From Mytilus trossulus (Eukaryota), in assembly GCF_036588685.1 (NCBI RefSeq), contig NW_026963340.1, forward strand, positions 2,790,001-2,854,000: DNA of 64,000 nt. The letters are read 5' to 3'. Shown piece by piece: positions 4,916-58,998 of the stretch (the first letter of the stretch is position 1; the number at the start of each line of letters is the position of its first letter). The position numbers were made by a program, and so were the translations under genes. The notes beneath the pieces were generated by a model that had not been told where the DNA came from, did not search any database, and saw only the letters and a list, made by a program, of their open reading frames with translations.

Positions 4916-7112
4916 TAAAGCAACATGTCAATAACCACAGGGCACATACATATGAATAAAGATATTATTACGTTAACAAAACAAATATATATACAATGTA
5001 TTAGATAATTAGGAGGAATAACGTTTGAATTGGATGATGAATTGCAAGCCATTTTTTATATTGAAAAACTTTCGAAAAGCGAGCATGTGCCAGTAGTCAA
5101 CACATGAAACATTATCTCAAGTACGATATAACTATAATTATGTATGATATATGTAAATATTTGTACAAACACATAAGGAGGAAGCAAACGAGTAATCAAT
5201 TAATCGGGTGCCACATGTGGAGTAAGATCCGCTTATTCTATCGTAGACCATAGATCACTGACAGTTGTTGGTGGGTTTCGTGTTGCTAAGTCTTTAGTTT
5301 TCTCTGGTGTGTCTAGTGTACTATTATTTGTCTGTTTGTCTTTTTGTTTGTTGACCATGACGTTGTCAGTTTGTTTTCGATATATGAGTTTGACTGTCCC
5401 TCTTGCATCTTTCGCCCCTCATTTAAACACAATGAAATTACAGTTTTGAAACATATGTGCAATGTAAAATGCTGTCTATTCTTGGTGTACTCTTTAACTT
5501 TTTTGAACTGATGTTAAATAAATTTAAAACAACAGAAATTCCAAACTCCAATGAAAATTCAAAACGAATAGTCTCTTATCATATATGTCATATACCGCAT
5601 TCCATGCATTTTGAATTGAACAAGGATTCATAGCTACATCTTGGACATGTATAACAGTAGCATAAAATGAAAACAATCGTCGCTCTATGTAAGCAAGACA
5701 TTAAAATCAAAATAAAAAAAAAATCTTAAATAATCACTGCATTATTCTTTAAGACTCATATCACAGGTATGAATCTAAATATGTAATCATTTTGTGTTAT
5801 AACATACCTCGTCAGTTCTGTAAATTGGTTACATGATTGTTATTAGATCATTCACTGTCCAAATTAAATAATATACTGGCCAATTGTGTTAAATACTCCT
5901 TTAAATCTTCATCGCAATTTTATAAGGAAATTAGAATAGGAATCTAAGGAGGAAATATTTACAGTGCAACAAAGCGTAAACAAGGAACAAAAGAAAAGTA
6001 TTATGACCCATTTTAATAATTTCCTGGCGAAAGAATGCTAAATACGTTAAATTTTCATAAAATTAACAAAAAACTGTTTGTTCGTATTATATCATTAGCT
6101 AAGTCTGATGATTATTTGTAACCGCCCAATTATCGTCAACTTTATTTTTGTCGTCGTTGAAAGCATGTATCGACAAACACTGCAAAAGACATTTTCAGAT
6201 TATAATTCACGAAAGAATATGTTCAAGGTATACAAATAATACGACTCTAAAAGCTATCGTGTTACATCTCGAATTGATGAGTTGCACGGTTTTCCAATAC
6301 ATTTAGAGGTCACGGTACGCCTATAAGATCAAACAAAGTTTTTTTTTAATCTTGAAAGGTTCAGTAGATAGATAATGCACTAACAAAACGCCTTTGTCCA
6401 TAACTCTCAGGAGGGATTCCTTTTTTTCGCGATAAACCAATTTTGCTACAAAAACAAACTCCAACATACATGGAAATGAACTATATCTGCTATCCACCAT
6501 GTAGTCACTAAAACTTCATACTTTAATCGGGCTTTTTAATTCTTTTATTCAATCTTCACTGTAGAGTATTTTGTAAAAGACATGTGTGTTGTACAAAATT
6601 AGAGGGCAATATAGAAATATTCAGACTTTAAGTTGGCCTAAATTATTAACATCAAACTCCAATAACGGTACATCAACCAAAACAATGGCACATTTCCTCA
6701 GTGAATTAAGTGAAGAATTAATCAAACAAGTATATGAATTGTAGACAAAATAAAAGATTGGTAGAAGACTAGATATATTCGATATGCCACTATATGCCGC
6801 TATATGACAATCTTATGAAAAGTATTTCGTTCATATAACGATTTAAATACTTTAAAAAACTTGCAATAAGGTAGCATGAGTCTAGTCTGTTTTATATTTC
6901 AATAGCTTGTTATTCGGGAAGTGGTATTTATTTGTTTGTCACATTTTTAGTTTCGGTTGACAGGACGCAATACAAATATAGCTGTGCTTTAAATCAAATT
7001 TGATTTAAAAAGGGGGTTAAGAATATCTTTTACATTTAATTTAAATATCATTATTTTTACACAAAATCGTTCACAAACATTGGTAAGTCGATTAATTGTG
7101 AGGCAAAATACA

Positions 7113-9456
7113 ATGTTGGTAATTCTCTTAATTGTATTTCTTGTTTCGAGTGTATGCGCACAGTGTTCTAAATATTCAGGACCTAGTGGAACTATAGAGT
7201 GTATACAACTATCTAGGTACAACAGCGAATACCAATGGGGAACTTGTTTGACAGATACATACATCAAAGCTAAATCTGGAGCAGAACACCAGTGCATAGA
7301 TCGAACTGCCACCTACTGCCATTACCAATGCATGCTCGAACTGTACGATGTTGGTTCTGGTCCAGTTGAAGGTTGTTGTAAATGTCAACAAGGACAGGAA
7401 TACACGTCAACAGATCTAACTCTTCCTTCGTCGTGTTATAGTCCTTCTGGAACAGACTGTGGGTGGTATGAAAATTGTCTTGAAAAGAAATACAAATGTA
7501 AAGGGACAGAAGATGACTATGCACTTGAATTTGCTACCAAATTTTGTAACCTCTACAATGAACATTTCAGTTCTTTCTCGTCTGGAGGACAGATATGGGT
7601 TAACTCTGTTCGCAAATGCCTACAAGTGTCTCTTGTTCCGATATTACGACCATGGTGTTCAAAGTCGTGCAAGGAAATTAAACAAATTGCCTTCGATTCG
7701 CATACCCCGTGTTATGTACGACCAAACAGACAAGATCTATCTATTTCCTTTTGCAATCTAAGCTTAAAAGATCGCGCAAGTGTATTTTGGACAATAAAAT
7801 CCAGTCTTGTAATGAAAGGAGCAGTTATTGAAACACTAAATGGAGTTATGATGACTATGAAAGAATGTACCGTACAATCATTAGACAGCTTACTAACTGA
7901 TGTCAACAGCTTGTTAACAGATGTTAAAGCCTTTACAATCGAAATTTTCACAAAAATACAAAGTTTATTACGTCGGCGTCGACGTGCGTTGTCCGATTTC
8001 ACAGATGCACTAACATTGGCAAATAGAATTGCAGATAGTATTGCTAATAAACTTCGTTGGAGTGAACAGGGAATTCTTTGGTTTTCGAGTGTCGATTCTA
8101 ACATTAGTTTGCCTTTGTCGAACGAACTACTTATGCTCGTACACCTTGCAGACAAGAAGACCTACGATTTGAATACAAATTATACCGAGTCTGCAGATAT
8201 CCATTTGATAGTTCGCGAATTTCAGAATAAACTTGAAAAAGGCGAATTGAAGGCAAATTTAGAGGATTATTTATTCCAACCTATCACTGCAAAAGGTTGT
8301 CTGGATGCCCAATGCAACATCACGCTATTTGACGTCAATGCCTCCTTGGACAGTAAGTACTTTCAAATTGTTATTTCATATTATATCATTAATAATGTAA
8401 ATCAAAATTGGTCGGAATAGTCTTGCTTTTCTACTACAATGTCACGATAGTATCGCCATTTTGAAAATCAGAGATAAACATCATTAGCAATTAATATTAC
8501 CTTTCCTTTTTACGGTATTATCATTATGTTTAACAGTAGTGCTGTATCATTCCCTTGTATCTGGATTTTTTGTCGAAAAAAATCGGCATTTTGAATATGA
8601 ACCGGAACAGCAGGTCATAACGTCATGAATATTTACAAGAATGAAGGAACGATTTTGTTTACTAAAATGGCTGAGAAATAATATAAATGGAACCTAAATT
8701 TTACAAATATTTGATATTTTGTTCTTCTCAACAAATGTTTTAAATGGTGTTCAAAGGAGTCATTTGTAAAATAAAACTAATGCAAAATTGACACGAATTT
8801 AAGATAATATAACAGTTTAAAAGAATCATAATACCCTAAACCTTGAATGACGCTACACAATTACAAAACTGATTAGTCAATCTGAATTAATGCAACTTAA
8901 TCAGGAGTAAAGTGACACTGTGGTAATTTTCTTTATAAGACAAACAATTGATAATCAGATTAGTATACGTTAACTAAGAAAAGATCAGTATGTGGTAGAA
9001 CATCCTGGTACTCGGTCAAGCAAGATCATTGTAAATAAGTAAATTCCAGATTTTAATACGTACAACTTTTAGGGAAAGTTAACTGTTTAAATCCTTTCTA
9101 TACATGACCAAGTCAACGGAAAATAATACGTTTTTCCCCAAATTGCACCGATTATACATTTGATTTTACTTTTTCTGTTTGCTCGTAATTGACAGAGTAC
9201 TATGTAGATAACCTGTTGAATAATTGTAGAACACAGAGTCAAAAGTCGGTACTATGAAAATAGTCTATTGTATGATGTATATATCTTACACCTCTCTTTA
9301 TTGGTATATGTTTGCACTGTACATTCTATAAGGATAGAACTTTAGTATGCGACAATCTTCAAATTTGATATTTAGGTTGAAATGTAGTGAATTATGGTAT
9401 AATGCAAATTTAAAACTCAATCCTTAACACTGTACTTTATTATTTCAGACTCTTAA
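7113..9456 (+). CDS. Cysteine-rich secreted protein with stanniocalcin-like domain and furin site (exon 1 7113-8352; exon 2 9449-9456)
   Basis: ATG 7113 starts a signal peptide MLVILLIVFLVSSVCA. Cys-rich N-terminal module, then the C..WY..CLE.K..C....Y...FA.KFC...W...VRKCLQ..L...C..I...AF.SH..CY...FC.L pattern recognised as stanniocalcin-like. RRRRR polybasic site. GTAAGT donor at 8353, tatttcAG acceptor at 9447-9448; spliced frame stops at TAA 9454-9456. Confidence 0.75.
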
Positions 9457-24691: not shown

Positions 24692-27600
24692 ATGGCCTCG
24701 TACGCTTCTTCCAGGGACGAAAACAATTCAGATTTTGAAGAGGTTGACAGCTTTGACTGCGATGATATGGAAGCACAAGCAACTGATGAAGGTAAATATT
24801 CAATCTGCTCAATATTTTATTATTCTTTGTGTGGATGCAAAAGATGTTTAGTGGCAGGACTCCGACACTCGACCCTGATGAGAAAGGTACTTTTTTTTAA
24901 GCATTGTGGCTGTGTGTGTACAAATGTACCAATGAGTTTTATACAAAAGTGACGTAAATTTACCAGTGTGATTCAAATTACAGAGAGATTATAGTGTCAA
25001 GTTGACACTTCTAAAGACTAAAGACTGTGTGCTGTTATAGTTTATGCTGTTGTTGTGCCGATATGGTACAAATAAGTAAAGTGTATGTGTAATAAACAGA
25101 ATACCTTTAATATCTGTAGATCGCTGTAATCTGATGAATATATAAGTCAGCAGACAGCAATAATATAATAATACATGTGTTCAATCTAGTAAGCGGAAGT
25201 AGAAGGGAAGTCTCCCTGTGACGTCACTCAGCTGCAGAGGGTAGCATGCAGTAGAATGTGGACTGGTTCTTCCTACACACACTAGCGGCACCACATCCGC
25301 CCCATTCTTGTAGAACCAGGCACATTCTCAAACTATAAAAGAAACTCAAATGCAAGATAAAATAAGGGTAATACAAAACATTAATAAAACTATACATATA
25401 TATATACACTTATGCAGTTATCAACACATCCTTGGTGATAACAAATATTTACATTACTAATTCAATAAACAATGTTAAGTTTCACGAGCTAACGGGGCCT
25501 AGGGCCCCAGCTAGCTGAATCTTGTCGCAGCTTTGGGATGCCATAGAATTTTAGGGCATTGTCATTTGTCGTCCAGTTTAGGATAGAAAGTGGGACGTTG
25601 CGTCTCTCACTAACAGCTACCGCCACTTCCCGTAAGTTCCATGGATGGTTGACAGCACAGCACGACCATGGCGTCAGAAATGGGGAGTCTGTCTCAAGGA
25701 CCAGCTGGTGTGGCAAGATTCTGGATATGGCATCTGTGTTGCAAGCATTGCTTGCATCTTTAATAAACTTGCCAGTGATGCCAAATACTACGCGAGGCAG
25801 GCTTTGCCACTGCCTCAACTCCTCCACATTCCCAGCAAAACAATGGCGATGGTAACATAGGTCAGGGAAATTTTCAGTTATCAATTTCAGCACACGGGCT
25901 GCTGCTTCTCCAGTGCCCTCATCACGGCAGTGTAATATGACAGGCAGTTTCATCCGTTGTGCCATCTCCAGCATCTGCATGAATGCCTGCTCCTGGCATT
26001 CCCTCATCCGCTGCCTGCACTGTTGTGGAGTTCTGCACCTCTTGCAGTCACAGCGTGTTGTGAAATCTAGGCCAATCTCACCAACAGCAACACATTTGTG
26101 ATTACCAAGCAGGAACTCTAGTTCTTCCAGCTGCTTTTGGGTGACCCCCTTTGCTGCAACATGTGGATGAATCCCAAATGAAACATATACAGCTTGGGCA
26201 GGTCCTACCTGTAGAGCCCAATCATTCCAATGGTCAGGGAACACATAATTGGCAATCCCATAGTAAAATGAGTTGTTGTGTTCCTTTGGAGATATTGCTG
26301 ACTTCATATGCAGGAAAGTCCTAAAATGAAGTCGTTTCAGAACCAAATCCAAGTGAAAATGGCTATCCACAAAAACGAACGGCTCTGGCAGTGGTGGCAC
26401 AATGTCCAATATGGGGCTGCCCTCGTATGTGAGAATCTCCACAGGTGACATCAGAGACTGCTGTTGCGCTGAGCCCACTCGTCGTAGTAAGCTTGCCATG
26501 ATCTCCCAATTTGTAAGGCTAATGACGTGATTTGGAGGGTTGGCGGTGATATGTACCAGACAGTCAGGACTATAGTTCTGTGCATAGTACACCAAGAGTT
26601 GCTGTTCCTGATCATTGAAACCGCTATTAACACCTTCATACAACTGTCTGTCAATGACGTACTGCAGTAGATCTTCGAGATTGGCACAACCGAACCAAGA
26701 TTTTATACGATGGAGGCAGCCGGTCACCAGTTGACACCATAGGTGAAGATGTTCCTCATCAAAGAAACATCCAAGTCTGTGCTCTTCTGTGTGCCGTAGC
26801 GCTAAGGAGGACGCCTGTACCTCTTGTCGACTACACTCCCAACAGGCAGTGGACCCAGACCAAAACCATGGCAGGTGTGTCTTCATCATGTGACGACGTG
26901 TCTTTTCCCTGGACATTATTCCACAGACAGGGCACTTCCGTAGTCTATTTTTGGAAGGCACTACTACTCTTCCTTCTGATTGGCTTTCATTTGTCTCACC
27001 TGATTCTCCCTCCTGACAAGGCTGACTAGAAAAACTCATCTGTGACATACCTGTCATGCTACTGTGTGCTTCAACAGGGCCTAGGGCCCCAGGAGAAGTA
27101 CCAGCACCTGCATCACTGTCATCAGGACCCACTTCATCAATTACCATCAAGTCCGCCACATCAAGATCTGTACAGTCGGACCGGGTATCATGCCACTCAC
27201 TGTGCGGACTAAGCGATAAAACATCTTGGTCTGAACGAGACCCTTCTTCCATTCTGGAACAAGAAGAAATGAAAACATATCATGAGTATTAAAAACATAC
27301 ATATATTTTAGAAATAATGTTATCAGCACTAATTGAAATATACAAGAGATATATACATATATACAGTCGTGAAGCTCCCACACAATACCTATTTTGTTTG
27401 GTACCGTGTTGGGCATCTGATTGGTCTACCGTATCTGGATGTTTGCACTGAGGACAGAGAGGCCGAGGGCCTCGTCTCGCCATCTGTGCCACTGACTCCA
27501 GTATCAACATTGTCCTCATTGGCATCGTTACCCAGACTTGAATTTTCCCCAAGGTCTAAATCGGGTCCCTGTTCCAGTTCTGATGTGATTGGGATATGGG

Positions 27601-30600
27601 CAAAGGAAGGGTCACCTAAAGACTGAAGTGCTGTATCATTGTCAAGCAATTGGGTATCCGATTCAAACATGCTTTGGACATTAAAGTCCACACCATAGGG
27701 AATGGTATCGTCAAGATTATCCCAGCTCTCATCGAAATCGCCTTCTTCCCTGAACATTGCATGTCTTAGTCTCTTGATCCAGGTGGGAATATCCCTATCA
27801 TTGCAACGCTTCAGTTTGTCATGATGTACCGTAGAATCTCGTTTACGTCCCCTGATAGTATACAATGGAGGTCTGCTTGATATGACCAGAAAAGGTCCAC
27901 ACCATGGCGATTTCAGCTTTCGACTCTGTCCGACTTTAGTGGTGGAGTCTGCCTTATAGACTAAATCACCGGGGTTGTATTTATGTTCGACTACTCTGAG
28001 GTCATAATCCCTCTTTTGCCGCAGCTGCGAAGCACGGAGATTATGTCTTGCAAATTCATGTGTTTTCTGCATCCGACTTACTAACTTTTGTACATAGGTG
28101 CTAGGAGTCATCTTGTTCTGGCCATATTGAGGTATTCCGAGGAGAAGTTGAATTGGTTGAATGGTCTCTCTCCCTAACATCATCTGATTCGGGGTAAATC
28201 CAGTTTGTCTATTGACCATCGAGTGCATTGCCATCGCCAGAAAGGGCAAATCTCTATCCCAGTGTCGACATTTTTTCTCGATAAAACACCTTATCATTGC
28301 TAAAACAATTGTGTTGTACCTTTCCACTTGCCCATTCGATGAAGGGTGATACGGGGTTGTCCTCGTTTTTGCAATTTCCAATGCCTCGCATAACGTCTTA
28401 AACAGATCACTGTCGAAATTCCGTCCTTGGTCTGTGTGGACCTCTAATGGACACCCAAACGTGACAATAAAATGTACAATAAACTTCTCAGCGACCATCT
28501 GGGCTGTTTGCGCAGGTAAAGACGCCATTTCGACCCATTTAGTAAACTGGTCCACCATCATTAGAACATAGTTGTTACCGCTCTTACTGGTGTTAAATGG
28601 TCCAAGTATGTCAATATGGACTCTCTCCATCGGATAGCCAGCATGGAACTGTCCCAGCGGAGCTCTTGGGTTAACATGAGCCTTTTTATTCTGGTTACAC
28701 ATGGCACAAGTACTAACATAGTCCTCACAATCCTTTCGCATATTGTACCACAAGAATGACTGTTTTAATTTTTCAAGTGTTTTTTTCTGACCCAAGTGTC
28801 CCGAAACTTTAGTGTCATGACAGTTTCGCAGCACCTCTTCTTTCAATGCTGTTGGCACAACTAAACAAAGTCCTTGGCGCTCTGGACAACCTATAAATTG
28901 GTAGTAGAGTACATCGTTAAACATAAGGAAACAAGGTCTACATAACCATAGAGATCTGGTAGCCTTTCCTCGCAAACGGAGTTCAGCTTGTGTAGGATCA
29001 GCATCTTGTTGCATCCAAGTCAATATTGGAGCTAAATCGGGATCTTCTTGCTGAAATATCTTTAACTGTTCCGGGGGGTACTCAGGTGCCCAATTACTAC
29101 ACGGATTTCCATCAGCATACGGTAAAGTGTCGTCTAGACTTGATGATGGGTGCGCTTCGCAATCCACTGCCAGAGCCGGGGGCTCTTGGTCAGGGGATTT
29201 GTCCTTTTCATTTTCAGGGACAACAGAAACAGTACGTACTGCTGCCATAAGAGACTTTGTTGCCAGTGGAATCACATCATCTACATCGTTACCAAACCTG
29301 CTCCATTGGTCATGAGCTCGCATGCAATATCGGCAGCCGTGGCATGGCAGTGTTGTAGGATCAAGTCCTGCCTGATAGCAATCACATTCAGTAACATCGT
29401 CTCGGATGCGGCTTAGGCCATCAGCGTTTAGATGTTTCTTTCCTGGTCGATGTATTATCTCCATATCAAAAGATGACAGCTCTTCTAGCCATCGTGCAAG
29501 CTGCCCTTCAATGTGCTTGAACCGCATCAACCATACTAAACTATTGTGATCCGTGCGGAGAATGAAGCGCCTACCAAGCAAATAATGGCGGAAATGCCGA
29601 CAAAATTTTACCACAGCTAATAACTCTTTCCTGGTGGTGCAGTAACGACGCTGAGGCTTCATCAGAACATGGCTGGCATAACATATAACCCGTTCTTTAC
29701 CATCTTGTATTTGCGATAACACCGCGCCTATAGTTGTATCGGACGCATCGGTGTCTAATATGAACTGGTCATTGGGATTAGGATACGTCAAGCAAGGTGC
29801 ACTTATTAACGCCGTTTTTGACTGTTGGAACGCCTTTTCGTGACACTGTTGCCATTCAGCTTCTCCTGTCTGGTGAGCAAGGTCGTATAGACATGCAGTC
29901 ATTTCTGCATAGTTGTGCAGGTGATCCCGGTGGTAATTGACAAACCCTAGGTATGACATGAGTTCTTTCTTTGACTTGGGAGTTGGCCACTTTTTCACTG
30001 CTTCTATCTTAGATGGAGAAACGGAGATGCCATTAGCACTCACCAGTTTTCCTAAAAACTCAACTTCAGGCTGAAACAGTTGACACTTCTTTGGTTTCAG
30101 CTTCAGGGTATACTGTCTAAATCTTTCAAATGCAGCCCTCAAATTAACGAGACCATCCTCGAAGTTGCGACCGAGAACCACGACATCATCAAGATAAACT
30201 AACACCTGTGTCCAAGTAAGTCCTCTCAAAACGAGTTGCATGGCCCGCTGAAATGTTGCTGGGGCGTTACAAAGGCCCATTCCCATTCTGGTGTGCTCGA
30301 ACAACCCATATCTTGTAATGAACGCCGTTTTCTTTCGGTCTTCTGGCTCAAGCTCAATCTGATAATAGCCACTGGCAAGATCCAATGTACAGAACGTGGT
30401 GGTGCCTTGGAGTGAGTCCAAGCAATCCTCAATAATAGGAATAGGGAAGCAATCTTTTATTGTTCTGTCATTTAAAGCTCTGTAGTCAATGCACCAGCGC
30501 ACGGTTCCATCTTTCTTTCTTACCAGCACTGGAGCTGAGGCCCATTCAGAAGATGATGGCTCAATGACACCTGCTTGTAACATCTTGTCAAGGTGCTGCT

Positions 30601-33600
30601 GTTCGAGATCTTGGAATCCAAGAGGTGTTCTTCGCATCCGGTGTTTAACTGGAGCGTGGTCTTTGGTATCTATTTTATGCCGGACAGCTGTAAGGCATCC
30701 GAGATCTAGGTCGTGCTGTGCAAATACATCCTGGTATTCGATTAATAACTTCTTGAGTTTTAACTTATCATCTTGACTAATTACATGCTTTGTAGAACGT
30801 TCATACAGATCTGTTAAATGGGATGGCAACGTAAACAATTCTTCTTGGCTTAAACCTGGTGCCGTGGGCACCTGGGTTTGTGTTTCTACGATGCCACGAC
30901 GGACATCTGGAGTTCGATTTTCACTTTCTTCCGAAGTCTCCTCCATTATACTGTCAATCTCTTCTAAATGACCTATCGGTGTTCCCTTTTTAATACGTAT
31001 GTAACGATTCCCATCATTCAAAATAGTTACAGGGCAAGATTTGCCTTTTCCGACAACATGCGAAACTAAAACTCCACTGGCAAGAGAGCATGGTTCCAAA
31101 ATAAACTCTTGTTCGGATCCTCTGTGTGTATCTATGCTGAAGATCATCGTTGAATTTGGCGGGACTGTAATTGTACGTTTAATGCAGACTTGTTGAGAAG
31201 CACTATCATCAGATCCAGTAACGAATGAGGCAGGTATAACTCTGTTGTTAACTGTAAGTGATGGAGTGCTGAGGTTGATGACTGCACCAAGCGTATCCAG
31301 AATATCTAGACCTAGAATGACATCATCTGTAAGTGGTGCCCTACACACGTCCCACCTTATTTCTAATCCATCTATATTCAGGAGTGTGTTCCTAATAATC
31401 TTGCCAATGACCAGTTGCTCGCCCAAACCACGTAGCGTCACTGTTTCGGAACATTCTATATTCTCCGGTATTAATTTCTCGTTGACGAGTGTAATCATAG
31501 CTGCTGTATCAACAATCATACTTGCATTTTGTTGAAATACTGTTCCCCGTACTGCCAAACTTTTTCCAATTGTACGTCTTATAACAATATCAGACGAAGC
31601 CGTGGGCCTCGGTTCTGATTTGTCGGGTGGTATTTTCCCTTGGCCATGTGATTTTAGAGTCGAGTGTTGGCCTACCGGCTCGACCCGTTGGCATTTAAAG
31701 ACTCAGTTGTTGGAGTAGAGTTTGGATAAGCTCTGTCGCCAGGTGAAGGGGACCGTTGTTTAAAGTAGCCTTGATTTCTAGAATTTGGTCGTGGTGATGG
31801 CGAACGTTGACGTTGAGGACTAAATGACCTCTGTTGGGGACTATATGACCTTTGTTGAGGACTATATGAACTTTGATTAGGAGGTGGTGTAGGTGATCGA
31901 TACGCATTGTACGTAGGTGGTGTATATCTTTCGGGAGACCTACCACGTGTATGTTGATCAGAAGAAAGCATCACCTCTGTCAATTTGGTCACAAGTTGAG
32001 TCAAGTTCCTTACTTCCTTTTCCAATGGACTATTAACAGTACTAGCACTTTCTGTGTCCTGTGATTTACCAGCGCTATCAGCAAATGAGACCTGTCTGTG
32101 GGCAAAATTTGGACTTCTAGATCCATAAATAGCCTTCTGATTCGCTATGGACGTTTTCATGATTTTCAACGCCTTATTGATGGACTCTGGGTTCCTTTCA
32201 ATCACGTGACGGGCAGCCTCTTTGTCCTTGCAACCTCTGAGGAATGCCTCTGTGCCAATTTGATCAATGACAGAATTGTCACATTTATCATACCCATCCA
32301 TTGCAACAAAATGGACCCGTTCAGCAAACTCCTCCAGTGTTTCACTGTCTTGCTGCCTCACATACTGCAACTGGCGTCTTGCTGATACAGGTTCGTCCTT
32401 TTTGCTGAAACGCTGTTTCAGTGCTTTCCTTAAAGTCTTATAGTCATCATCGATGTTGACCTTTCTTGCATATTCTAAAGCCACATCAGCTAGACAGTCC
32501 AATAGTCGGCAAACTTTCTTCCTATTTTCCCATTGTCTCCTTCCTGCTGTTCTTTCAAACTGATAGATAAAGGCTTCCCACGTAAGAAAACCTCTTCCTG
32601 TGAAAACTTGCATTTTAGGAAGCTGGGGACTTCTACTCCTGTCTCTCGCCCCAGAGTTTTCCTGCCACCTAGAGCACTCCCTATCAAGAGAGGAGTCTGA
32701 CGAAGAGCTGTGGCTTCTTTCCTTTTTCTTTTTAGTGCGTGATCTTGAAGACCTGCTAGTGTCAATTTGCATTGGTGACGGGCCTGTGGATGCTACTGTT
32801 GTCATCACAGGGGTCATAAACGCAGGCGGAGGCTGTTGTATCATTGATCCTATATGAGGGTACAGAGCTGGTCTACTCTGTACTAAGGACGCTGCATATG
32901 ATTCGCTACTTGTAGCTGGTGCAACGTGTAAAGGTGTACTAACATTGATACCCTGTGATACATATGGTGTACCAACATAGGACGGTGCAAAAGTAGCCGT
33001 TGCTGGAGTTGTGTTATGTTGGGGTTTGTATTCAGTGGATACTCCCTCTATGCCTTTGAATGGATGCTGTGTTACCATACCTGAGTTTGTCCCGTGCAGA
33101 GCCGAGGGCCCTGGCACGCTTCCCTTGTCACTCAGTAGTGGCAACGAACCTTGCATATGATAGATCTCCTGGTCACTACCAACACTTTCTGGCATGCCTT
33201 TGCCCTGAATCTGTTGAAACAACAATGTATTGTGCAGAGCCGGGGGCCCTAACACATTACCTTTGTCACTCGATACTGGAGTTGTACCTGCCTTAGATTC
33301 AGGCTGTGTAGTCTCGTCAATTGACATAATTGGCGAGAGACTAAATGCTGGAGGCTTATTTTGCAGTAATGGAGTACTGGCAATATATGGACTAGCTTCA
33401 GATTTCTGTTTAACAGGAGTATCCATAGAAGGGAGCTTGACTTCCTTATTTCTCTTGTTAATCAAATCGCTAACACTTGATGCCATCTGCTGAAATGAAC
33501 CTGGGTGTTCAAATGCACTCTTGAATTGCACGGTACTTGCCTCATCATTAGCAGCAGCCATTTTGTCTAGCCGCCTTCCCAAGGCATTAAACTTATCCGA

Positions 33601-36600
33601 TGTTAACTCTTCTAAACGTTTTCCGTTAGCATCAATCTTCTTGTCAATTCTCTGGTCTGACCGTTGCACTTGTTGGGATATTGCCACGATGTTTTCTGTA
33701 CTGATTTTTGTTGCTTCTTTTTGTTCAGATTGAATATTTAACAAACCATGGAAAATCTGTTCAATGCGATCCTCACTTTGTTTCACTCTGCTTTCAGTCT
33801 CAACAGCTCTTATTGCATTTGCTTTTCTATCCGCCTGAAACTCTTGGTATAGCTGTTCCAATGACATTTTGGTATTTTCAGCTGGTTCTGTCAAAGTAGT
33901 ATCAGCTATATTTTCTTTTGTGAATATGTCATCTTGTATCAACTCCTCTGTTTCAATGTTTTCCTTCAGTTCATTCTCATCCCCAATTCCTGCCATGTTG
34001 TCTTTATTTCAAATTACAATATTCTTAAATATTTCAAATTACAATATTATGCAACTCAAAACAATATTATAATTTGCACTGAGTAATTACTCAAGGCAAA
34101 TAAATCTCAAAATCACAACTTTTATGTGTGACTCAAGACATAAACAATGCAGCTTTTTTATAAAAGCTACTACTTTTACAATTTCAAAAATGCAGGCAAC
34201 AAAATAGGATAGAACTGGAACAGAGACTCAGTTGACACACTGTACTTTATTATACGGTGTATAATATGTTACTCATAAAATATTTATGAGTATATACCCT
34301 CTTTAATATAAAATATCAGTCTAAATTCAGTATAAAAATAATGTACGAAACTAAGTTACTGAAATCGAGACTGTTTCCGGTTTGCGTCTGCGCAATGGAG
34401 TATTGCAGACAAATGACTTCCGTGAAGAAGGACCTAATGGCGATAACCGGAAGTTCCTAACCTTATCTGATGAAAAATATCAAATATGAAGATTTCATAC
34501 GTGATAAACTGTAAAAATTTGATGCAATTTAATCTACTATCAATCTGTAGTAAATTTATGGTAATGCTTACGTAATAAATTTACAAAAAATGAAGCATCA
34601 AAAGTTTTCAAATCTGTAAAGGCGCCCTCGTGGAGTCCGCCTCACTTGCAGAAAATAATTCGTTCTTTGTCGTACGACGCCAATGTTGTGCCGATATGGT
34701 ACAAATAAGTAAAGTGTATGTGTAATAAACAGAATACCTTTAATATCTGTAGATCGCTGTAATCTGATGAATATATAAGTCAGCAGACAGCAATAATATA
34801 ATAATACATGTGTTCAATCTAGTAAGCGGAAGTAGAAGGGAAGTCTCCCTGTGACGTCACTCAGCTGCAGAGGGTAGCATGCAGTAGAATGTGGACTGGT
34901 TCTTCCTACACACACTAGCGGCACCACACTGTGACTTTTATCTCGCTATTGCATTGCATTTGGGAGGTCCTAAACCATCCGAACTCAGCGGCAATATCTG
35001 TGTTCTGTTTGGTTTTGGTTCTTGATTTTAGACGTTTCGGCCATAAATTTCGCGGTAAAGGCAAGAATATCCCAAGGATATATTTTGCTCCGGATAAAAA
35101 AAATAACAAAAACTACTGTGACATTTTTTCCTTCGGATCAAATTTCACCAGGATATAATTTTGCTTTACACCAACACCTGGTATAGTTACTCAAATGTTG
35201 CCAGCTGCCATTACACAGGTACGACAGTGGTTAAGCACAAAAACCATTTAGATAAAAATCACAAGATGAATGATTTGTTTTCATCCTTATCTGTGATTTA
35301 AAAAACAACTTTTATACTGATTTCTTAGTTGTTGTTTTTTATTTATATACATCAAAAACTACCTGAGGGTTACATTAAATATATGTTTATACAATGTAAA
35401 TATAAAAATAACTAAAAGAATGACACTGAAATTAACAAATATAGGCCTAGGTCATCTTTCAGCGTTCAACTTTTTTAAATGAAAACCAATCAAAACATTA
35501 TTAGAATACTATTATTTGAAAACTTTAACAGCAATTCTGCAATTAAGCTCAATATTTTTCCAACTGGTTATATATATTGTTTGTACAGATTTATAACGAT
35601 GTATCTTAAATTTAATTAATTTTTGAAGATATAAATTATAATTTTTGATAAAAAAAAACAATCATTAAATAAAAATTTTAAAAAATATTCTCCCCATACG
35701 GCATACCTTAACTCGGACATTTTTGTCAGAAGGAAAGAAATGAGTAAAAATATAATTAGGTCGTGAATTGACAATGTACATGTACATGTAGGTGTTGATG
35801 AGACCAGGTCCTAAACATGCTAAATTGACCAGGTTCCGATTTTGACTTGTACTGGATAATTTGTTTTTTATAGAACGATCACGTCTATCAATTGACCTGA
35901 GCTTTGCAGGTTACACCAGGGAATTTAATAGCTCAAATATCAGTTTATTATTCAAACCCCATTGGGATCAGTCAAACCATCAAATTACTTGTTATCACCT
36001 TCTAGAACCTTGCATGAAGAGTCTTCCAAAACAGGGGCCTATTAAATGGGTCATCTTGGACAAGAAATTCAATTATTTGCTCTCAATTGAATCATTTACA
36101 GCTTTAATTTCCAAACATAATTTAAACACTCTTCATTCCAGGTTATGTACAAATGTAAAAATGAAAACATGAAATTGAAATTTGAGTTTATTTTCAGCAA
36201 ATATTTCACAATTATGAATTCGAAATTTTGAATATATTTGAAGGAAACTTGTATGTATTAAAAAGAAAACGCTCAATATTAAAATTCAACTGAAAACTTT
36301 GTATGCATAAATTTTATGACCTTTTCTTCCTCAATGCATATATCTGTCACATTTCCAGAGGTTGACAGGTACATAATTAGTCATATAATAAAGTTGGTTT
36401 GCCTTCAGATATTAGTTCTCTCTCGAAATAACATTAAAAGGCAGATTCAGACTGTTACCTTATACTTACATTCTAGCATCAATTGGCATTATGTGGGTCT
36501 CAAAATGTAAGAAAAAAAAAGCCAGTATCAATTTTGATATGACCTTTTTAAGGGCATTTGAAGCCTTCCATGTAAAGAAAAGTAGGTGAAATGGGACAAC

Positions 36601-42600: not shown

Positions 42601-45600
42601 AATATGATATGTAAAATGTTTGGTGTAAAATTAGGAGTATTGTGTATCTTAGAATGGTTAAATGAGAGCAGATGTAAATTTATATGTCAGTATGTATAAG
42701 GGGATTACAGTTTAAAGTGGTACCTCACACTACAGGGAGATAACTCTGTAAAAATCACCTAAGTGTTCTTTTGTTAAGGAAATATAAACTTCTTTGTTTG
42801 TCAAACTGCTATATACCCAATGAAATATTTCTTTCAAAGTCTATATTTTTTTTTTAAATTTTATGCATTTGACCAAGTGTCAAAAGTTAATATTTTGTCA
42901 AATTTTTATCAAAATTTCTTGTTTAGTATGAAGAAAATATGTTGTGTCTGTAAAGAACACTTGAGGTTTTTAGAATGTTATTTAATTTACTTGATTGTCT
43001 TGATTTTTTATTTCAGTTAGAAGTAGTTGAAAGAGAATATATAAAGGAGAAAAAAGCTACAGCTAAAGATTTTGAGGTAGATTATTTTAAAACTTTTTTA
43101 CAAACTGTAAATACCAAGAAATACACTCAAAATACACTGGTATAGGCCAATTAAGAATAAATGAAGACATAGGGTATAATTTAATTAGACAGTAACCTAC
43201 TGGCAAAAAATTACCAAGAAAAATTGAGACAGAAAATACAATAATAACTGCATCTAGTTTTTCAAATATGTGGCCTTTGGAAAATCAATTTATGAAATCT
43301 GCATTTGACAATTTATCAAAACATTTATTATGTTATAAATAACAATTTTGGGGTCTGTTGAAAGAGCAGTTAATTTTAAATCAACAGTCTTATCAATTTA
43401 TCTTTTATATAGAAGTTGAGTGACCTAGTTTATGATTTGATTGTGAATACTCTATTTTAAGTCTGCATTCATTTCAATTTTCCATGTCCAAGTAAATCAT
43501 TTCATGGTATGTGAAAGACACCCGTATCAATTTTTGTTTTTCTACATTTCAGGAAAAGAAGATTGACTTGAAAGAAAGTTTGATACTTGAATATGAAGAC
43601 AAATCAAAGCTGATAGAAAGTGAAAGACACTCATTGGATCTCACAGGAAGTAGTATGTTTAAAATCTACAGTGAAAACTGGATTTACTGAAGATTATCTT
43701 TACATAAAACTGTTTAAATCTACAGTGAAAACTTTGTTTTACTGAAGATTATTTTTACTTAAAACTGTTAAAATCTACAGTGAAAACTTTGTTTTACTGA
43801 AGATTGATTGATTGTTGGTTGTTTTACTGCAGATTATGTTTACATAAAACTGTCAAAATCTACAGTGAAAACTTTGTTTTACTGAAGATTATGTTTGCAT
43901 AAAACTGTTAAAATCTACAGTGAAAACTCAGTTATACTGAAGATTATGTTTGCATAAAACTGTTCAAATCTACAGTGAAAACTCAGTTATACTGAAGATT
44001 ATGTTTGCATAAAACTGTTAAAATCTACAGTGAAAACTCAGTTAACTGAAGATTATGTTTGCATAAAACTGTTAAAATCTACAGTGAAAACTCAGTTATA
44101 CTGAAGATTATGTTTGCATAAAACTGTTAAAATCTACAGTGAAAACTCAGTTATACTGAAGATTATGTTTGCATATGACTGTTAAAATCTATAGTGAAAA
44201 CTCAGTTATACTGAAGATTATGTTTGCATAAAACTGTTAAAATCTACAGTGAAAACTCAGTTATACTGAAGATTATGTTTGCATAAAACTGTTAAAATCT
44301 ACAGTGAAAACTCAGTTATACTGAAGATTATGTTTGCATATGACTGTTAAAATCTATAGTGAAAACTCAGTTATACTGAAGGTTATGTTTGCATAAAACT
44401 GTTAAAATCTACAGTGAAAACTTTGTTTTACTGAAGATTATGTTTGCATAAAACTGTTAAAATCTACAGTGAAAACTCAGTTTTATTGAAGATTATAAAA
44501 CATTAAACTGTTAATACATGTTAAATTACTTAAAAGTTTTCACTGTTTGTTCTGATCAAAGAGCTTTGATATATATTCAGGCTTTGGTCAAAGCAGGCTC
44601 CTTTGTACTGTGTAGTGTGAACTTTTTTTTAACTTGTGCATCTTAATTTTCTTTGGTCAAAAATACAATGCTTTATAAAAGATTTTTGCATCTACTGTTG
44701 AAGAACATGATATTTTCATACATTTTCAACAGATTTATACTCAATTTGTAAGCAACTTACAGTTTTATGCTGAGCTTTTTAAAAATAAGTCTTTACAAAA
44801 TTTATTAGATTTATACCTTCAGAATGACATTTCATACATGTTATAATAAGCATAAATAATTGTATATTCAATACACATAAAAAATGAAAGCTTTTTGAAA
44901 GGAAAAGGGGGAGGGCTGTTAATTAAGTAAAGCAAGCTTTAGAGGTGCTACACAAGTTGCTGTCTCTTGCCATCAGGCAAGTGGTTTGAGAATTTTATTT
45001 CAAGTCCTGTTGTTTAATTGAATATTTTTTTTCCATTTCAGATTTTATGTTATCTGATACTTTAGAAACCAAAGCACCATCAACCCGTAGACTGAGGAGA
45101 CGACCTAATGACCCCATGCCACTACCTGAGAAAAGACGGAAAGCCTCACCAGATATCCTTTTAGTTCTAAAATCATGTGCTAGAAATCTGATTCTTATAT
45201 ATTTGAAATACTGTAATTGGGAATTGCTATATATATACACAATCCTTTATATTTCAAAACATTAATTCATACCTGCCAACTTTTAAAGTGCCCATGGGGG
45301 TTTTAGTGTGCGACAACAATTTCAAAGGTTACAATACTTTGCGACGACTATTTTGCTCGTGCTGTTTTGTGGTCTAGAAAAATTGTCATATTTGTGAGAT
45401 GAGCTTACATGCCTTTTTCTTAAGTTTATTTGCATGATTCTAGTTATAATATATCAGTAGAAAAGATGAACATGTGGCTGCAAGACCAGGAATTAATTTC
45501 ATGTGTAAGGATATGAAATAATTGTTGACTTTTCCAATTTAAAATTATGCACAAAGAAGGACCTTTGTCAGGTTGGGAACAACACCTAGGGGTAACCCCT

Positions 45601-49428: not shown

Positions 49429-50850
49429 CCTAGTTTTATATAGAACTGTAGAATCTCATTGTAATCATAATCATTTCATACTAAATTCATATCAATTATT
49501 TCACTCTTTTGTTTTTCCATCAGCAGCGATAGATGGATGTATACTTAAATTTCACTAAAGTGTACTTAAAATTTGAGAATGGAAATGGGGAATGTGTCAA
49601 AGAGACAACAACCCGACCAAAGAAAAAAACAACAGCAGAAGGTCACCAACAGGTCTTCAATGTAGCTAAAAATTCTCGCACCCAGAGGCATCCTTCAACT
49701 GGCCCCTAAACAAATATATACTAGTTCAGTGATAATGAACGCCATACTAATTTCCAAATTGTGCATTTATCATAAAATTGCTTAAGCAATGAACAAAAGT
49801 TTAAGTTTAAAAAGAAGTTAAAGATACCAAAGTGACATTCGAGTCCAAAACAGTCTAACACGTTGTCATGGCAAAAAAAGAAAAGAATGTCATGAAACTT
49901 ATAATCAATACTCATTGCAAGAATACACTGATCAAGTTTGAATTTTGGTGGCGTCTCTTTAACTGTTCTAATTTTTATCTACTGAAAATTCAGAAATTAT
50001 TGCGAGGTTTTTATTATTGCCAATAATGCGACTGAGTTGTATTAAAACGCAATAATTAAAACTCGCATTTTGTAATATTTTAATTGAATTAAGCATGACT
50101 TTTCTCAAAATCGTAATAATTAAAATCGCATTCAAGTGTAAAATGACAAAAAAAATTGCTTAAAAACATGTATATAGAAAACTAAATTTTAAGCAACCCA
50201 ATCTGTGTTAAAAATTGTGATATCAGTTGGTCTCTAAAAGTAATCTGATTCAGCCTGACTAGTGCACCAGCAAATAAAAGTAGTAGATACTTTATATCTA
50301 TGTAAGATGCCTGTCTCACACAGATCATAAAATAAATCCACCAATAAAAACTAGCCGCTACAGAATAGCCCAAAAGTGGTGCTTATAAGTGGCGTTAAAA
50401 CATAAAATTTTAAAAAAAATACAAAAATCAATGATTATTGAATGTTACCGCCATAAAAAAGGACAAAATAAGATTTAGAAGGAAATGGGGAATGTGTCAA
50501 AGAGTCAACCACCCGACCATAGAACAACAGCCAAAGGCCAGCAATTGGATTGATACATCTTTCCTTAATTTAAGAATACCATGGAGATATCATACTCAAT
50601 AATGATTTAGGTACCTGTATTTTACTTGATTTGTACTTGAAATTTAAGTGCTACAGATTTTTTGTTGCATGGTTACATTTTCAGCATTTTGGATGTTTGT
50701 CTTTTTCAAATCTCATAAAGTTATGAGGTTCAAACATGGCATCCTGTGATCATTGTTGGTATCATTTTTGCACCAATATTTTAAGTACAAATCTAGGAAC
50801 TGGAAAATACAAGTACCTAAATATTACAATAATTTCTAAAGTAAAGTGTC

Positions 50851-53800
50851 GCTCATATCAAATTAGTTGTTAACCCAAACAAGTGCAAAGTTGACGGGCA
50901 TTAAGAATACAAAATTCCAAAAAGTTGTGCTAAAAAAACCAGCTAAGGTAGCCTAATCCTGGGACAAGAAAATCCTTATTTTTTCGAAAAAAATCAAAGT
51001 TTTGTAAACAGGAAATTTATAAAAATGACCTCATAATTGATATTCATGTCAACGCCGAAGTGCTGACTACTTGGCTGGTGATACCCTCGGAGACAAAACG
51101 TGCACCAGCAGTGGCATCGACCCAGTGGTGTAAATAGTTATCAAAAATACCAGGATTATAATTTAGTGCCCTAGACGCCCGTTTCGTTTACATAACACTC
51201 ATCAGTGACGCTCATATCAAAATAGTTATAAAGCCAAACAAGTACAAAGTTGGAGAGCATTGGGGATCCAAAATTCAAAAAATTGGTGCAAAATACGGCT
51301 AACTTACAGGTGATCTATTCCTGGGACAAGAAAATCCTTAGTTTTTCCGAAAAAAATCCAAGTTTTTTAAACAGGAAACTTATAAAAATGACCGCATAAT
51401 TGACATTCATGTCAACACTGGAGGGCTGACTACTTGGCTGGTGATACCCATGGGGACGAAACGTGCACCAGCAGTGGCAACGACCCAGTGGTGTAAATAG
51501 TTATCAAAAATACCAGGACTATAATTTTGTATGCCAGACGCGCATTTCGTCTACATAAGACTCATCATTGACTCTCATATCAAAATAGTTATAAAGCCAA
51601 ACAAGTTCAAAGTTGAAGAGCATTGAGGATCCAAAATTCCAAAAAGTTGTGCAAAATACGGCTCTGGTAATCTATTCCTTTGACAAGAAAATCCTTATTT
51701 GTTCCGAAAAATTTCAAGTTTTGTTAACAGCAAACTTATAAAAATGACCGCATAATTGACATCCATGTCAATACTGAAGTGCTGACTAATGGGCTGGTGA
51801 TAGGAGACGAAACGTCAACCAGCAGTGGCAACAACCCAGTGGTGTAAGTAGTTATCAAAGGTTCCAGGATTATAATTTAGTACGCCAGACGCACGTTTCG
51901 GCTACATAAGACTCATCAGTGACGCTCATATCAAAATAGTTATCAAGCCAAACAAGAACAAAGTTGAACAGCACTGAGGATAAAAAATTCAAAAAAGATG
52001 TGCGAAATACGGCTAAGGTATTCTATTTTTTGGACAAGGAAATCCTTATTTTTCCTGAAAAATTTAAAGTGTTGTTAACAGGAAACTTATATAAATGACC
52101 GCATAGTTGACATTCATGTCAATACTGAAGTGTTGACTACTGGGCAGGTGATACCCTTGGGGACGAAACGGCCACCAGCAGTGGCATCGAACCAGTGGTG
52201 TAAGTAGTTATAAAAAACAGAATTATAGTTTTTTACGCTAGACGCGCGTTTCGTCTACATAAGACTCATTATTGACTCTTTTATCAAAATAGTTAAAAAG
52301 CCAAACAAGTACAAAGTTGAAGAGCACTGAGGATCAAAACTCAAAAAAAGTTGTGCAAAATACGGCTAAGGTAATCTATTCTTGGGATAAGAATATCCTT
52401 AGTTTTTCTGAAAAATTCAAAGTTTTGTAAACAGGAAACTTATAAAAATGACCGCATAATTGACATTCATGTCAATACTAATCATGAAGTGCTGACTACC
52501 GGGCTGGTGATAGGAGACGAAATGACCACCAGCAGTGGCAACAACCCAGTGGTGTAAGTAGTTATCAAAGGTTCCAGGATTATAATTTAGTACGCCAGAC
52601 GCGTGTTTCGTCTACATGAGACTCATCACTGACGCTCATATCAAATAGTTATAATGCCTAACAAGTACAAAGTTGAAGAGCATTGAGGATCCAAAATCCA
52701 AAAAAGTTGTGCAAAATACGACTCAGGTAATCTTTTCCTGGGACAAGAAAATCCTTATTTTTTCCGAAAAATTCAAAGTTTTGTTAACAGGAAACTTATA
52801 AAAATGACCGCATACTAGTAATTGACATTCGAAGTGTTGACTACTTTGCCGGTGATACCCTCGAGGACGAAACGTGCACCAGCAGTGGCATCGCCCCAGT
52901 GGTGTAAATAGTTATCAAAAATACTAGGACTATAATTTAGTACGCCAGAAGCGCATTTCGTTTACATAAGACTCATCATTGACTCTCATATCAAAAAAGT
53001 TATAAAGCCAAACAAGAACAAAGTTGAAGAGCACTGAGGATCAAAAATTTAAAAAAGTTGTGCAAAATACGGCTATGGTATTCTATTTTTTGGACAAGGA
53101 AATCCTTATTTTTCCTGAAAAATTTAAAGTTTTGTTAACAGGAAACTTATATAAATGACCGCATAATTGACATTCATGTCAATACTGAAGTGTTGACTAT
53201 TGGGATGGTGATACTCTTGGGGACGAAACGGCCACCAGCAGTGGCATCGAACCAGTGGTGTAAGTAGTAATAAAAAAACAGAATTATAGTTTTGTACGCT
53301 AGACGCGTGTTTCGTCTACATGAGACTCATCACTGACGCTCATATCAAATAGTTATAAAGCCAAACAAGAACAAAGCTGAAGAGCACTGAGGATCAAAAA
53401 TTTAAAAAAGTTGTGCAAAATACGGCTAGGGTATTCTATTTTTTGGACAAGGAAATCCTTATTTTTCCTGAAAATTTTAAAGTTTTGTTAACAGGAAACT
53501 TATATAAATGACCGCATAATTGACATTCATGTCAATACTGAAGTGTTGACTATTGGGATGGTGATACCCTTGGGGACGAAACGGCCACCAGCAGTGGCAT
53601 CGAACCAGTGGTGTAAGTAGTAATAAAAAAACAGAATTATAGTTTTGTACGCTAGACGCGTGTTTCGTCTACATGAGACTCGATCATCATTGACGCTCAT
53701 ATCAAATAGTTATAATGCCAAACAAGTACAAAGTTGAAGAGCATTTAGGATCCAATATCCAAAAAAGTTGTGAAAAATACGACTCAGGTAATCTTTTCCT

Positions 53801-54465
53801 GGGACAAGAAAATCCTTATTTTTTCCGAAAACTTCAAAGTTAACAGGAAACTTATAAAAATGACCGCATACTAGTAATTGACATTCGAAGTGTTGACTAC
53901 TTTGCCGGTGATACCCTCGAGGACGAAACGTGCACCAGCAGTGGCATCGACCCAGTGGTGAAAAATAGTTATCAAAAATACTAGGACTATAATTTAGTAC
54001 GCCAGACGCGCGTTTCGTCTACACCAGACTCATCATTGACGCTCATATCAAAATAGTTATAAAGCCAATTAAACAAGTACAAAGTTGAAGAGCATTGAGG
54101 AACCAAAACTCCAAAAAGTTGTGCCGAATACGCTAAGGTAATCCATGCCTTGGGTAAGAAAATTGTTTGTTTTTCGAAAAATTCAAAGTTTTGAAAACAG
54201 GAAATTTATAAAAATGACCACATTATTGATATTGGAGTCAACACCGAAATGTTGATACCCTCGGGGACGAAACGTCCACCAGCAGTGACATCGACCCAGA
54301 GGTGTAAATAGTTATCAAAGGTACCAGGTTTATAATTAAGTACGCAAGACGCGTGTTTTGTCTTCATAAGACTCATCAGTGATGCTCATATCAAAATATT
54401 TATAAAGCCAAACAAGTACAAAGTTGAAGAGCATTGAGGGTCCAAAAACTCCAAAAAAATTGTGC
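50851..54465 (-). repeat. Tandem array of ~350-360-bp units (~10 copies), each with a type I hammerhead motif (non-LTR retrozyme-like)
   Basis: Units start at about 50851, 51210, 51573, 51924, 52277, 52634, 52983, 53338, 53695, 54041, 54384; minus-strand consensus cgtcaCTGATGAgtcttatgtagacGAAAcgcgcGTCtggcg. Confidence 0.88.
51883..51924 (-). ncRNA. Type I minimal hammerhead ribozyme (best-preserved copy)
   Basis: Stem I CGUCA/UGGCG, CUGAUGA box, short stem II (one mismatch in this copy), GAAA box, near-palindromic stem III, GUC cleavage triplet. Confidence 0.75.
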
Positions 54466-54561
54466 ATGCACTTATAAACAATACAATAGAATATTACAAG
54501 CTAATAGTTAAGAAAGATACCAGGCTTATCTTTTAATAAACGCTACAAAGAGAGACTTATT

Positions 54562-58160: not shown

Positions 58161-58401
58161 ACATGGAGTCTTTAACACTTGGAATGGTATCTTTAACAAA
58201 ATAATATGACAAGCAACAAAACACAGATCGGCCTTTAATACCCTTATACCCGGAAAAAAACCCTGACATATACGATACGACCCCCCCCCCCCTTTATACA
58301 ATATGATACTACACGAAGCATACACTGAAAGTAAAAAATAACAAAATAAACAAAGAGAGATGAAAGGTTTACAAGTAGCTTTAAAACAATGTGTAACTCG
58401 T

Positions 58402-58798: not shown

Positions 58799-58998
58799 TT
58801 CATTAGGGACTCTCCGTTTTGGACTTTCCTCAGGGTTCATTCTTTTTTTTTATTTTGCTATTTATACATGTATATATGATATATATATTTTTCATTTCTG
58901 CGCAGCCTGTGTTGGATGCTGATAAGCCTGATTGCTGTCGAGATCATTGAATTTTCGGTCACCTTCCTTACTGGGCATTCTTTCCTCTACGATTGTAT

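Follow-up and report, generated by a model that had tools for sequence, protein, structure and literature searches.

A TatD-type nuclease gene carried by a lineage of Gypsy retrotransposons in the mussel Mytilus trossulus

Why does a retrotransposon carry a gene for a TatD-type nuclease in the place where retroviruses have their envelope gene? The question is raised by a 64,000-nt stretch of the Mytilus trossulus genome (contig NW_026963340.1; the whole stretch is called the window below), in which a Gypsy long terminal repeat (LTR) retrotransposon of 9,878 bp occupies positions 25051-34928 on the minus strand. LTR retrotransposons are usually viewed as gag-pol plus an optional env. The third open reading frame (ORF3) of this element points instead to an undescribed accessory enzyme of retrotransposons.

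The element and its third gene

The element shows the features by which Ty3/Gypsy retrotransposons are recognised: paired direct LTRs with TG...CA ends, a target-site duplication, gag, and a pol with its domains in Gypsy order. The original prediction, which was made from the sequence alone, had called it an intact Gypsy element with a third ORF, and the identical 245-bp LTRs, the 4-bp duplication and the order of the pol domains confirm this. The coordinates also bear out its placing of ORF3 inside the LTRs, on the gag-pol strand and between pol and the polypurine tract (Table 1).

ORF3 had further been described as a TatD protein with all metal-binding motifs and with neither a signal peptide nor a transmembrane segment. 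Both descriptions hold. Pfam TatD_DNase (PF01026) matches over its full profile at residues 295-571 (E 1.4e-42; 146 bits against a cut-off of 27), and an AlphaFold model of ORF3 (mean pLDDT 84.8) matches solved TatD structures in Foldseek, the best at E 9.5e-15 with a TM-score of 0.85 by target, as expected of the TIM-barrel fold. The six motifs named at the time (DSHFH, GIHPH, GEIGLD, ILHCR, HCF and ETDSP) are present in 6/6 copies of the family, and by motif and alignment the metal ligands and the catalytic Glu/Glu/Asp are all in place. Because the highest hydropathy mean over 19 residues is 0.92, the protein has no transmembrane stretch, and its N-terminus is acidic. An env gene was rejected as an identity for ORF3, since signal peptide, transmembrane anchor and fusion-protein homology are all lacking, and so was a DEDDy/DnaQ exonuclease, since only TatD was matched in Pfam and in the fold search.

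The TatD domain is preceded by a zinc-finger pair and a helical part, together called the N-domain below. When modelled alone the N-domain is confidently predicted (pLDDT 92.7). Against folds in the PDB the zinc-finger part weakly resembles C2H2 arrays (best Z 4.3). Searches with the N-domain found nothing in phage genomes, nothing in BFVD at E 0.001 and nothing usable in the ESM Atlas, absences which do not establish a new fold. About one third of the relatives have a four-cysteine insert at ORF3 residues 401-412. Among named proteins the closest is one from Mytilus trossulus (99%); entries from M. coruscus, M. edulis and Saccostrea come next.

Distribution and conservation of the TatD gene

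The element belongs to a family of six copies, 99-100% identical, at six genomic places. In each copy the two LTRs, about 9.6 kb apart, are identical to each other; the 12 LTR matches at 97% identity or more make up these six pairs, with no solo LTR. The 4-bp target duplication is perfect in four copies, and in the other two the upstream copy deviates in its final two bases. The family is very young and was recently active. ORF3 is present and open in 6/6 copies, so it is not absent from sister copies, a point on which the original prediction had proposed to be judged.

TatD cargo is a property of a lineage, not of one element. Of 30 loci fetched in a search with ORF3, pol comes immediately before it and in the same orientation in 28, and in the other two the flanks were too short. 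Profile and integrase searches of the genome yielded at least 140 TatD matches and at least 122 integrase matches, respectively. When these were crossed (with 114 of the 140 TatD rows entered; those left out were additional fragments, for the most part of the same loci), a TatD match lay at most 10 kb downstream of 62 of the 74 integrases at 46% identity or more, as against none of the 48 at 36-44%, among the matches listed. At least 11 families carry TatD, with ORF3 identity down to about 25%. Those directly examined are the window's own, a family 70% identical to it (the 70% family), L019, L022, L023, L026, L028, L041, L036, L042/L043 and L045; gag, pol, ORF3 and paired LTRs are all present in the distant families L019/L037 and L036/L046.

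Gene models in other Mytilus species join integrase and ORF3 in one protein, and oysters have ORF3-type proteins (P0018 and P0072), seen as proteins alone, without genomic context. The N-domain is carried by 152 of the first 178 database proteins, most of them unnamed. Among metagenome and viral loci, pol accompanied TatD in 2 of 84 (upstream, in L048 and L052); nearly all of the 80 metagenome loci kept, and all four matches on viral contigs, were TatD-only.

Exceptions to the association are 12 integrases without TatD, two of which (L149 and L150) were opened. The L149 family, which belongs to a branch with PHD fingers, has recent-looking copies and LTRs ending in TG...TA; its ORF3 (L149:2873-4291) keeps the zinc-finger/helical part (E 5e-11 to the ORF3 profile) and has a different, unnamed C-terminal domain. 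Integrase matches of the L149 kind lie within open frames that reach about 2,500 codons. In L150 ORF3 is missing, and an unrelated open frame lies downstream. In the outgroups L151 and L152 a 240-aa ORF3 stands behind the integrase, with paired Cys/His motifs (the zinc-finger matches being weak) and a coiled coil.

Another enzyme was found in a sister TatD-bearing family, L036 (L036:1-5286, on G000:C10). Here a domain of the RNA 2'-phosphotransferase Tpt1/KptA (E 1e-35) lies at the start of pol, before the protease, a PHD finger follows the integrase and a helix-hairpin-helix motif lies at the start of gag. Read by eye, 14 of the 33 genomic Tpt1 matches sit 4-12 kb upstream of TatD on the same strand. 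A literature search for Tpt1 together with PHD in retrotransposons turned up nothing.

Between families the gene is clearly constrained. ORF3 of the window and of the 70% family differ at synonymous sites to saturation (pS 0.81-0.93), while pN is 0.12-0.17 over the folded domains. Among 91 aligned relatives, picked by similarity, E392 and E520 are found in 91/91 and D522 in 90/91; the further ligands H298, H300, H441 and H470 are present in 91, 88, 90 and 90, respectively.

Organisation of the element

The features of the element are listed in Table 1. The PBS-like (primer binding site-like) tract is unchanged in sister copies, and one pattern search found no tRNA matching it. The Pfam match of the protease is weak (E 0.067) but strong in the sister element L036. 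By the heptamer rule for -1 frameshift sites, TTTAAAT is likely to be such a site between gag and pol, and similar heptamers are found at the end of gag in L037 and L046. A search of Rfam gave no match.

Table 1. Features of the Gypsy element in the window (positions in the 64,000-nt stretch)
Feature	Position	Strand	Remarks
5' LTR	34684..34928	-	245 bp, TGT...ACA; carries the splice donor used for ORF3
3' LTR	25051..25295	-	245 bp; 100% identity with 5' LTR
Target-site duplication	25047..25050		4 bp, ACAG on the minus strand
Target-site duplication, second copy	34929..34932		4 bp
PBS-like tract	34668..34682	-	starts with TGG, one base past the LTR; 10-bp palindrome inside
Splice donor in 5' LTR	34736..34738	-	AAG|GTATTC; last exon base 34738
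gag	31672..33996	-	774 aa; Retrotrans_gag, PNMA-like
TTTAAAT heptamer	31693..31699	-	in the 31-nt gag/pol overlap
pol	27389..31702	-	protease, reverse transcriptase, RNase H, integrase in Gypsy order; 1437 codons open
Polypyrimidine tract and AG splice acceptor	27253..27275	-	acceptor one base before the ORF3 ATG
ORF3	25489..27252	-	587 aa; single open frame, 136 bases past pol, before the polypurine tract and 3' LTR
ORF3 N-terminus	before the zinc-finger pair	-	acidic, disordered; no signal-like stretch
Tandem C2H2-like zinc fingers	26773..26940	-	residues 105-160; C107, C110, H121, H126; C137, C140, then less conserved histidines
Helical domain	26413..26760	-	residues 165-280; no Pfam family, no clear fold match
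TatD domain	25540..26370	-	residues 295-571; TATDN2 branch; H298, H300, E392, H441, H470, E520, D522
Second splice acceptor	25332..25334	-	just before the polypurine tract; joint with 34738 in runs X1 and X2
Polypurine tract	25296..25309	-	ends in GA, then 3' LTR

Next to the insertion site lies a 108-bp repeat (24919-25026), found in at least 38 other places at 94-100% identity. The rest of the window contains a 475-codon open frame without a Pfam match (6993-8420, plus strand) and, at 43626-44593, 50847-54565, 58401-58855 and 59633-59941, tandem arrays (periods near 55, 353 and 99 bp) and an inverted repeat of 151 bp that is almost perfect. Elsewhere in the genome, parts of TatD-bearing elements occur as inverted pairs within about 8 kb (G000:C11:5641318-5649024 and G000:C3:91493428-91499919).

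Splicing of ORF3

How ORF3 could be expressed is indicated by splice joints in assembled contigs of sequencing runs, none of them on record as RNA; the RNA status of the contigs is a guess, and they give neither level nor strand. A contig of run X1 joins 34738, the donor in the LTR, to 27253, the acceptor of ORF3, with GT-AG ends. With such a spliced message the ORF3 protein would be made apart from Gag-Pol. Runs X2 and X3, both of one study, have a different 28-base exon joined at 27253, so that this acceptor was used in 3/4 runs. The exon has a single genomic place (G000:C1:21492065-21492092, locus L148), where a GTGAGT donor follows it, implying an insertion that is missing from this assembly and a chimeric ORF3 transcript. 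A joint from 34738 to 25332 (X1 and X2) corresponds to a short LTR-to-LTR RNA without gag, pol and ORF3. The LTR donor is also spliced to unrelated downstream sequence in X2 and X3. Start contexts of ORF3 agree with an acceptor close to the start codon: in 9 of the 12 shown an AG ends at most one base from the ATG, and in the rest it lies a few bases upstream.

ORF3 had originally been called intronless and said to occupy the env position. Its coding region indeed contains no intron, but the frame is reached by splicing from the LTR. Position and splicing likewise resemble those of env, but nothing points to an envelope role.

Origin of the TatD domain

In a tree of 37 rows, which omits L045 with its long branch, the TatD domains of the elements group with TATDN2 at 100/99, as opposed to a TATDN3-like and six bacterial-type proteins. 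They nevertheless fall outside the clade of host orthologues (96/89), which comprises sequences from a fungus, a coral, arthropods and lophotrochozoans. The mussel's own TATDN2 (P0278, locus L132) is a multi-exon gene with 28% identity to ORF3; the near-identity to a host TATDN cDNA that would betray a one-off transduction was thus not observed. The low identity and the position outside the host clade led us to reject ORF3 as a TATDN2 orthologue or recent retrocopy. Capture from a bivalve TATDN2 was also rejected when 15 element sequences were forced together with it (p-AU 0.0009), a test that long branches may bias.

The integrase and TatD trees are congruent in part. The two agree on three groupings (the window family with the 70% family, L036 with L042, and L023 with L026); elsewhere they disagree or give no resolution.

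No named host TATDN2 has the N-domain; of the 95 proteins searched for it, the two that matched are both unnamed. P0101, P0134 and P0137 are unnamed proteins of 1.4-1.9k aa with an N-terminal B-box and two or three copies of the ORF3 N-domain, without TatD. They may possibly represent a domestication of the N-domain or its source. In P0080, P0180 and P0305 a NADAR domain is fused to TatD; these include ORF3-type proteins, seen as proteins alone, and a host-type TATDN2 of Lingula. P0352 combines the ORF3 N-domain with a TatD that adjoins host TATDN2 in the tree (80/61) and is possibly a second capture. Further intronless genes of the TATDN2 branch were seen without an upstream Gypsy integrase (L039:1551-3492 and L040:2388-3347). 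L039 comes after an OTU-like protease ORF and reverse transcriptase fragments, and its TatD is perhaps the cargo of a different mobile element. The intronless TatD gene at L038:2698-3519 lies outside the TATDN2 branch and is presumably a processed copy of TATDN3, a label we give it by its motifs.

Insertion junctions

One of the roles originally proposed for the nuclease was the trimming or repair of cDNA and integration gaps, and the junctions of insertions, with the one end-processing trait that can be seen in the genome, bear on it. Of 32 insertions scored, 9 have an upstream 4-bp duplication whose final two bases are swapped for the dinucleotide that follows the polypurine tract of the element (GA, AA, AG or GG). 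None of the 32 had a retained dinucleotide at the opposite end. The nine are L002/L031, L006/L035, L007/L137, L139/L140, L019/L037, L183/L184, L153/L154, L163/L164 and L165. For scoring, L136/L009 was merged with L135/L008, which has the same flanks; L141, L144-L146, L166-L168 and the LTRs of L011 and L016, which had no matching pair of ends, were left unscored. The retained dinucleotide was counted in 5 of 22 insertions with TatD, 3 of 7 insertions of the TatD-less L149 family and 1 of 3 LTR relatives with an unchecked interior; these three relatives include one further mismatch of another kind. Since the TatD-less insertions have it too, the retained dinucleotide is a trait of the lineage and not of TatD, and TatD was rejected as its cause. 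Trimming of integration ends thus finds no support in this control. The pattern itself suggests that the U3 5' overhang is often retained when gaps are repaired.

Function of ORF3

The presence of ORF3 in 6/6 copies, its 28% identity to the host protein and the constraint between families lend good support to the original prediction that this retroelement lineage has an accessory nuclease of its own. Judged from these sequence data, ORF3 is very probably a maintained, active accessory nuclease.

What it would act on is best approached through its relatives. Bacterial TatD and TATDN1/3 are DNA exonucleases, whereas human TATDN2 is reported to degrade the RNA of R-loops and hairpins, to have little DNase and no flap endonuclease activity, and to act only minimally on plain RNA:DNA duplexes (PMC10711561). 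According to the same report, the human enzyme depends on its N-terminal arm for binding to R-loops and needs E593, E705 and D707 to degrade their RNA; E392, E520 and D522 of ORF3 correspond to these residues by motif. In medaka, tatdn2 is described as shielding primordial germ cells from R-loop damage (PMC12709183). Placement of ORF3 in the TATDN2 branch, together with the RNA-directed activity reported for its human member, therefore favours a role on RNA:DNA hybrids among those originally proposed and weakens the trimming or clearing of cDNA. The original prediction had argued from TatD proteins in general, as DNA exonucleases or AP (apurinic/apyrimidinic) endonucleases.

We therefore consider that ORF3 may act as a tethered TATDN2-type nuclease that removes RNA from R-loops or intermediates belonging to the element, a reading to which we give a little under an even chance. 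ORF3 would have begun as a double-zinc-finger accessory protein, of a type still present in sister lineages without TatD, and a TATDN2-like domain would have been added to it long ago. The fingers and the helical domain might then stand in for the targeting arm of the host enzyme, holding the nuclease to DNA or RNA of the element itself. Thus tethered, it could degrade RNA in R-loop or hairpin structures, be it that of nascent transcripts at integrated copies or that remaining on replication intermediates. In germ cells this would keep up the expression of the element and preserve its loci.

Several observations weigh against this interpretation. Because the identity to host TATDN2 is only 28%, the specificity of ORF3 may have changed. 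The 37-row tree contains no TATDN1 row; a single clade of all 17 element-type rows was not rejected (p-AU 0.36), which does not demonstrate a single origin; and the integrase tree does not separate TatD-bearing families from outgroups (77/76). The L149 family has no TatD despite its recent-looking copies, so TatD is dispensable for mobility. Picking the 91 aligned relatives by similarity favours conserved sites. The LTR-ORF3 joint of X1 comes from one contig of one run, with 29 letters on its short side and a guessed RNA status. Finally, ORF3 of the six young copies shows 12 non-synonymous differences and 1 synonymous difference, which fits neutrality (p 0.32), and the end of pol looks likewise neutral (17 and 7). 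Such differences are expected for fresh insertions and lend no support to selection; neutral evolution of ORF3, raised in the original prediction as an alternative, is thus contradicted between families and compatible with the data within this one.

Four other functions were considered. A tethered nuclease might instead destroy the small RNAs or nascent-RNA scaffolds used by Piwi-type silencing. The separate splicing of ORF3, its zinc fingers and the reported preference of its closest characterised relative for RNA (PMC10711561) would all suit such an anti-silencing role, as would the PHD fingers that integrases in the sister branch carry and the link to silencing suggested for ORF3s of rotifer elements (PMC5408684). 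This role overlaps with the clearing of RNA from the element's own loci to an extent that sequence cannot separate the two, and as an explanation of its own we consider it unlikely, although worth keeping in mind.

Molluscs possess STING-type sensing, and a separately expressed ORF3 could act in trans to clear cytosolic cDNA or RNA:DNA hybrids and so avoid cGAS-like/STING sensors. The DNA exonuclease activity of bacterial TatD and TATDN1/3 would fit this, but ORF3 is of the TATDN2 branch, whose human member has little of the activity required (PMC10711561), and a nuclease for free cDNA would endanger the element's own intermediate. Evasion of immunity in this way appears distinctly improbable. 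Slightly less credit still can be given to a replication helper that trims cDNA ends, primers or integration gaps. The presence in one branch of Tpt1/KptA, an RNA end-healing enzyme, suggests some pressure on nucleic-acid ends; ORF3 is however separate from Gag-Pol, the retained dinucleotides are independent of TatD, and flap endonuclease activity was reported to be lacking in human TATDN2 (PMC10711561).

It is more doubtful again whether the nuclease attacks competing elements or viruses, or benefits the host by supplementing TATDN2 in germ cells. In its favour, the ORF3 acceptor is joined to a host exon in two runs, both from one study, and the N-domain is repeated in B-box proteins without TatD; but ORF3 moves with young, dispersed insertions and no fixed, LTR-free ORF3 locus was found among those fetched. 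That ORF3 is a neutral passenger, transduced once from a host cDNA, hardly deserves belief: the six young copies do differ in a neutral-looking manner, but the idea is refuted by the constraint between families (saturated synonymous sites, few amino-acid changes, invariant catalytic glutamates), and the presence of ORF3 in at least 11 families and the rejection of a bivalve TATDN2 as donor speak against it too.

If the clearing of RNA by ORF3 is taken together with the other enzymes, a wider and more tentative picture emerges, which we regard as possible but would not lean on. An old invertebrate lineage would encode a targeted R-loop/RNA nuclease by way of an env-like spliced message, as a counter-defence against silencing or RNA damage, as part of an undescribed set of accessory enzymes for RNA processing, with Tpt1/KptA in pol and NADAR on some of the ORF3-type proteins, that would be comparable to the accessory genes of retroviruses. 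Sister families with and without TatD exist naturally, so the role of an accessory nuclease in a retrotransposon can be tested.

Comparison with known systems

No description of TatD as retrotransposon cargo was found in the literature searched, which did not extend to Repbase, Dfam, GyDB, subscription papers and supplements, and the word TatD is absent from the main text of PMC5408684, PMC13524379, PMC12440569, PMC10886601, PMC6338049 and PMC6431247. Consensus entries for such oyster or mussel families are likely to exist already; that one of them names TatD seems to us rather unlikely. Many bivalve genes labelled 'tatD' or 'TATDN2-like' are in fact cargo of elements, and claims that the gene family has expanded are affected by this. 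The transposon-like genes listed in the Hox cluster of the giant squid include a 'TATDN2' gene (PMC6962438, figure legend). It may be such an element, in which case the range would reach cephalopods.

The host TATDN2 shares with ORF3 the TatD branch, the catalytic acidic residues by motif and a long N-terminal part before the barrel. It differs in its many exons, in its 28% identity and in that named members lack the N-domain.

The env of env-carrying Ty3/Gypsy elements is made from a spliced subgenomic message. With errantiviruses and other env-bearing elements ORF3 has in common its place between pol and the 3' LTR (PMC13524379), and a spliced subgenomic message has been stated for ORF3s in general (PMC5408684). 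It is set apart from errantivirus env by the lack of a signal peptide, a transmembrane stretch and fusion-protein homology, and by a donor that lies inside the LTR. Known mollusc Gypsy clades (C-clade and MolGy1-16; PMC6238403) share host group and superfamily with the lineage, which probably falls in one of them. That survey sorts elements by reverse transcriptase and RNase H, and the word ORF is absent from its main text.

The nearest precedent is provided by the DEDDy ORF3s of the rotifer elements Juno and Vesta (Rodriguez, Kenefick and Arkhipova 2017, PMC5408684), the one well-described case of enzymatic third genes, for which the available text gives no evidence of long-term selection. 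These elements too are of Gypsy type and have an enzymatic, non-envelope ORF3 after pol, with intact catalytic residues and a predicted 3'-5' nuclease activity. The likeness is one of position and broad chemistry only. The DEDDy fold is unrelated to the TIM barrel of TatD, and the rotifer genes are described as family-specific and gained more than once, with no departure from neutrality reported in the text available. The mussel ORF3, in contrast, combines its nuclease with zinc fingers and a helical domain, is found in at least 11 families, shows strong constraint between families and has a splice joint of its own. It thus offers a nuclease that is old and widespread in its lineage, with a conserved active site, in families with very young copies and in a common farmed host.

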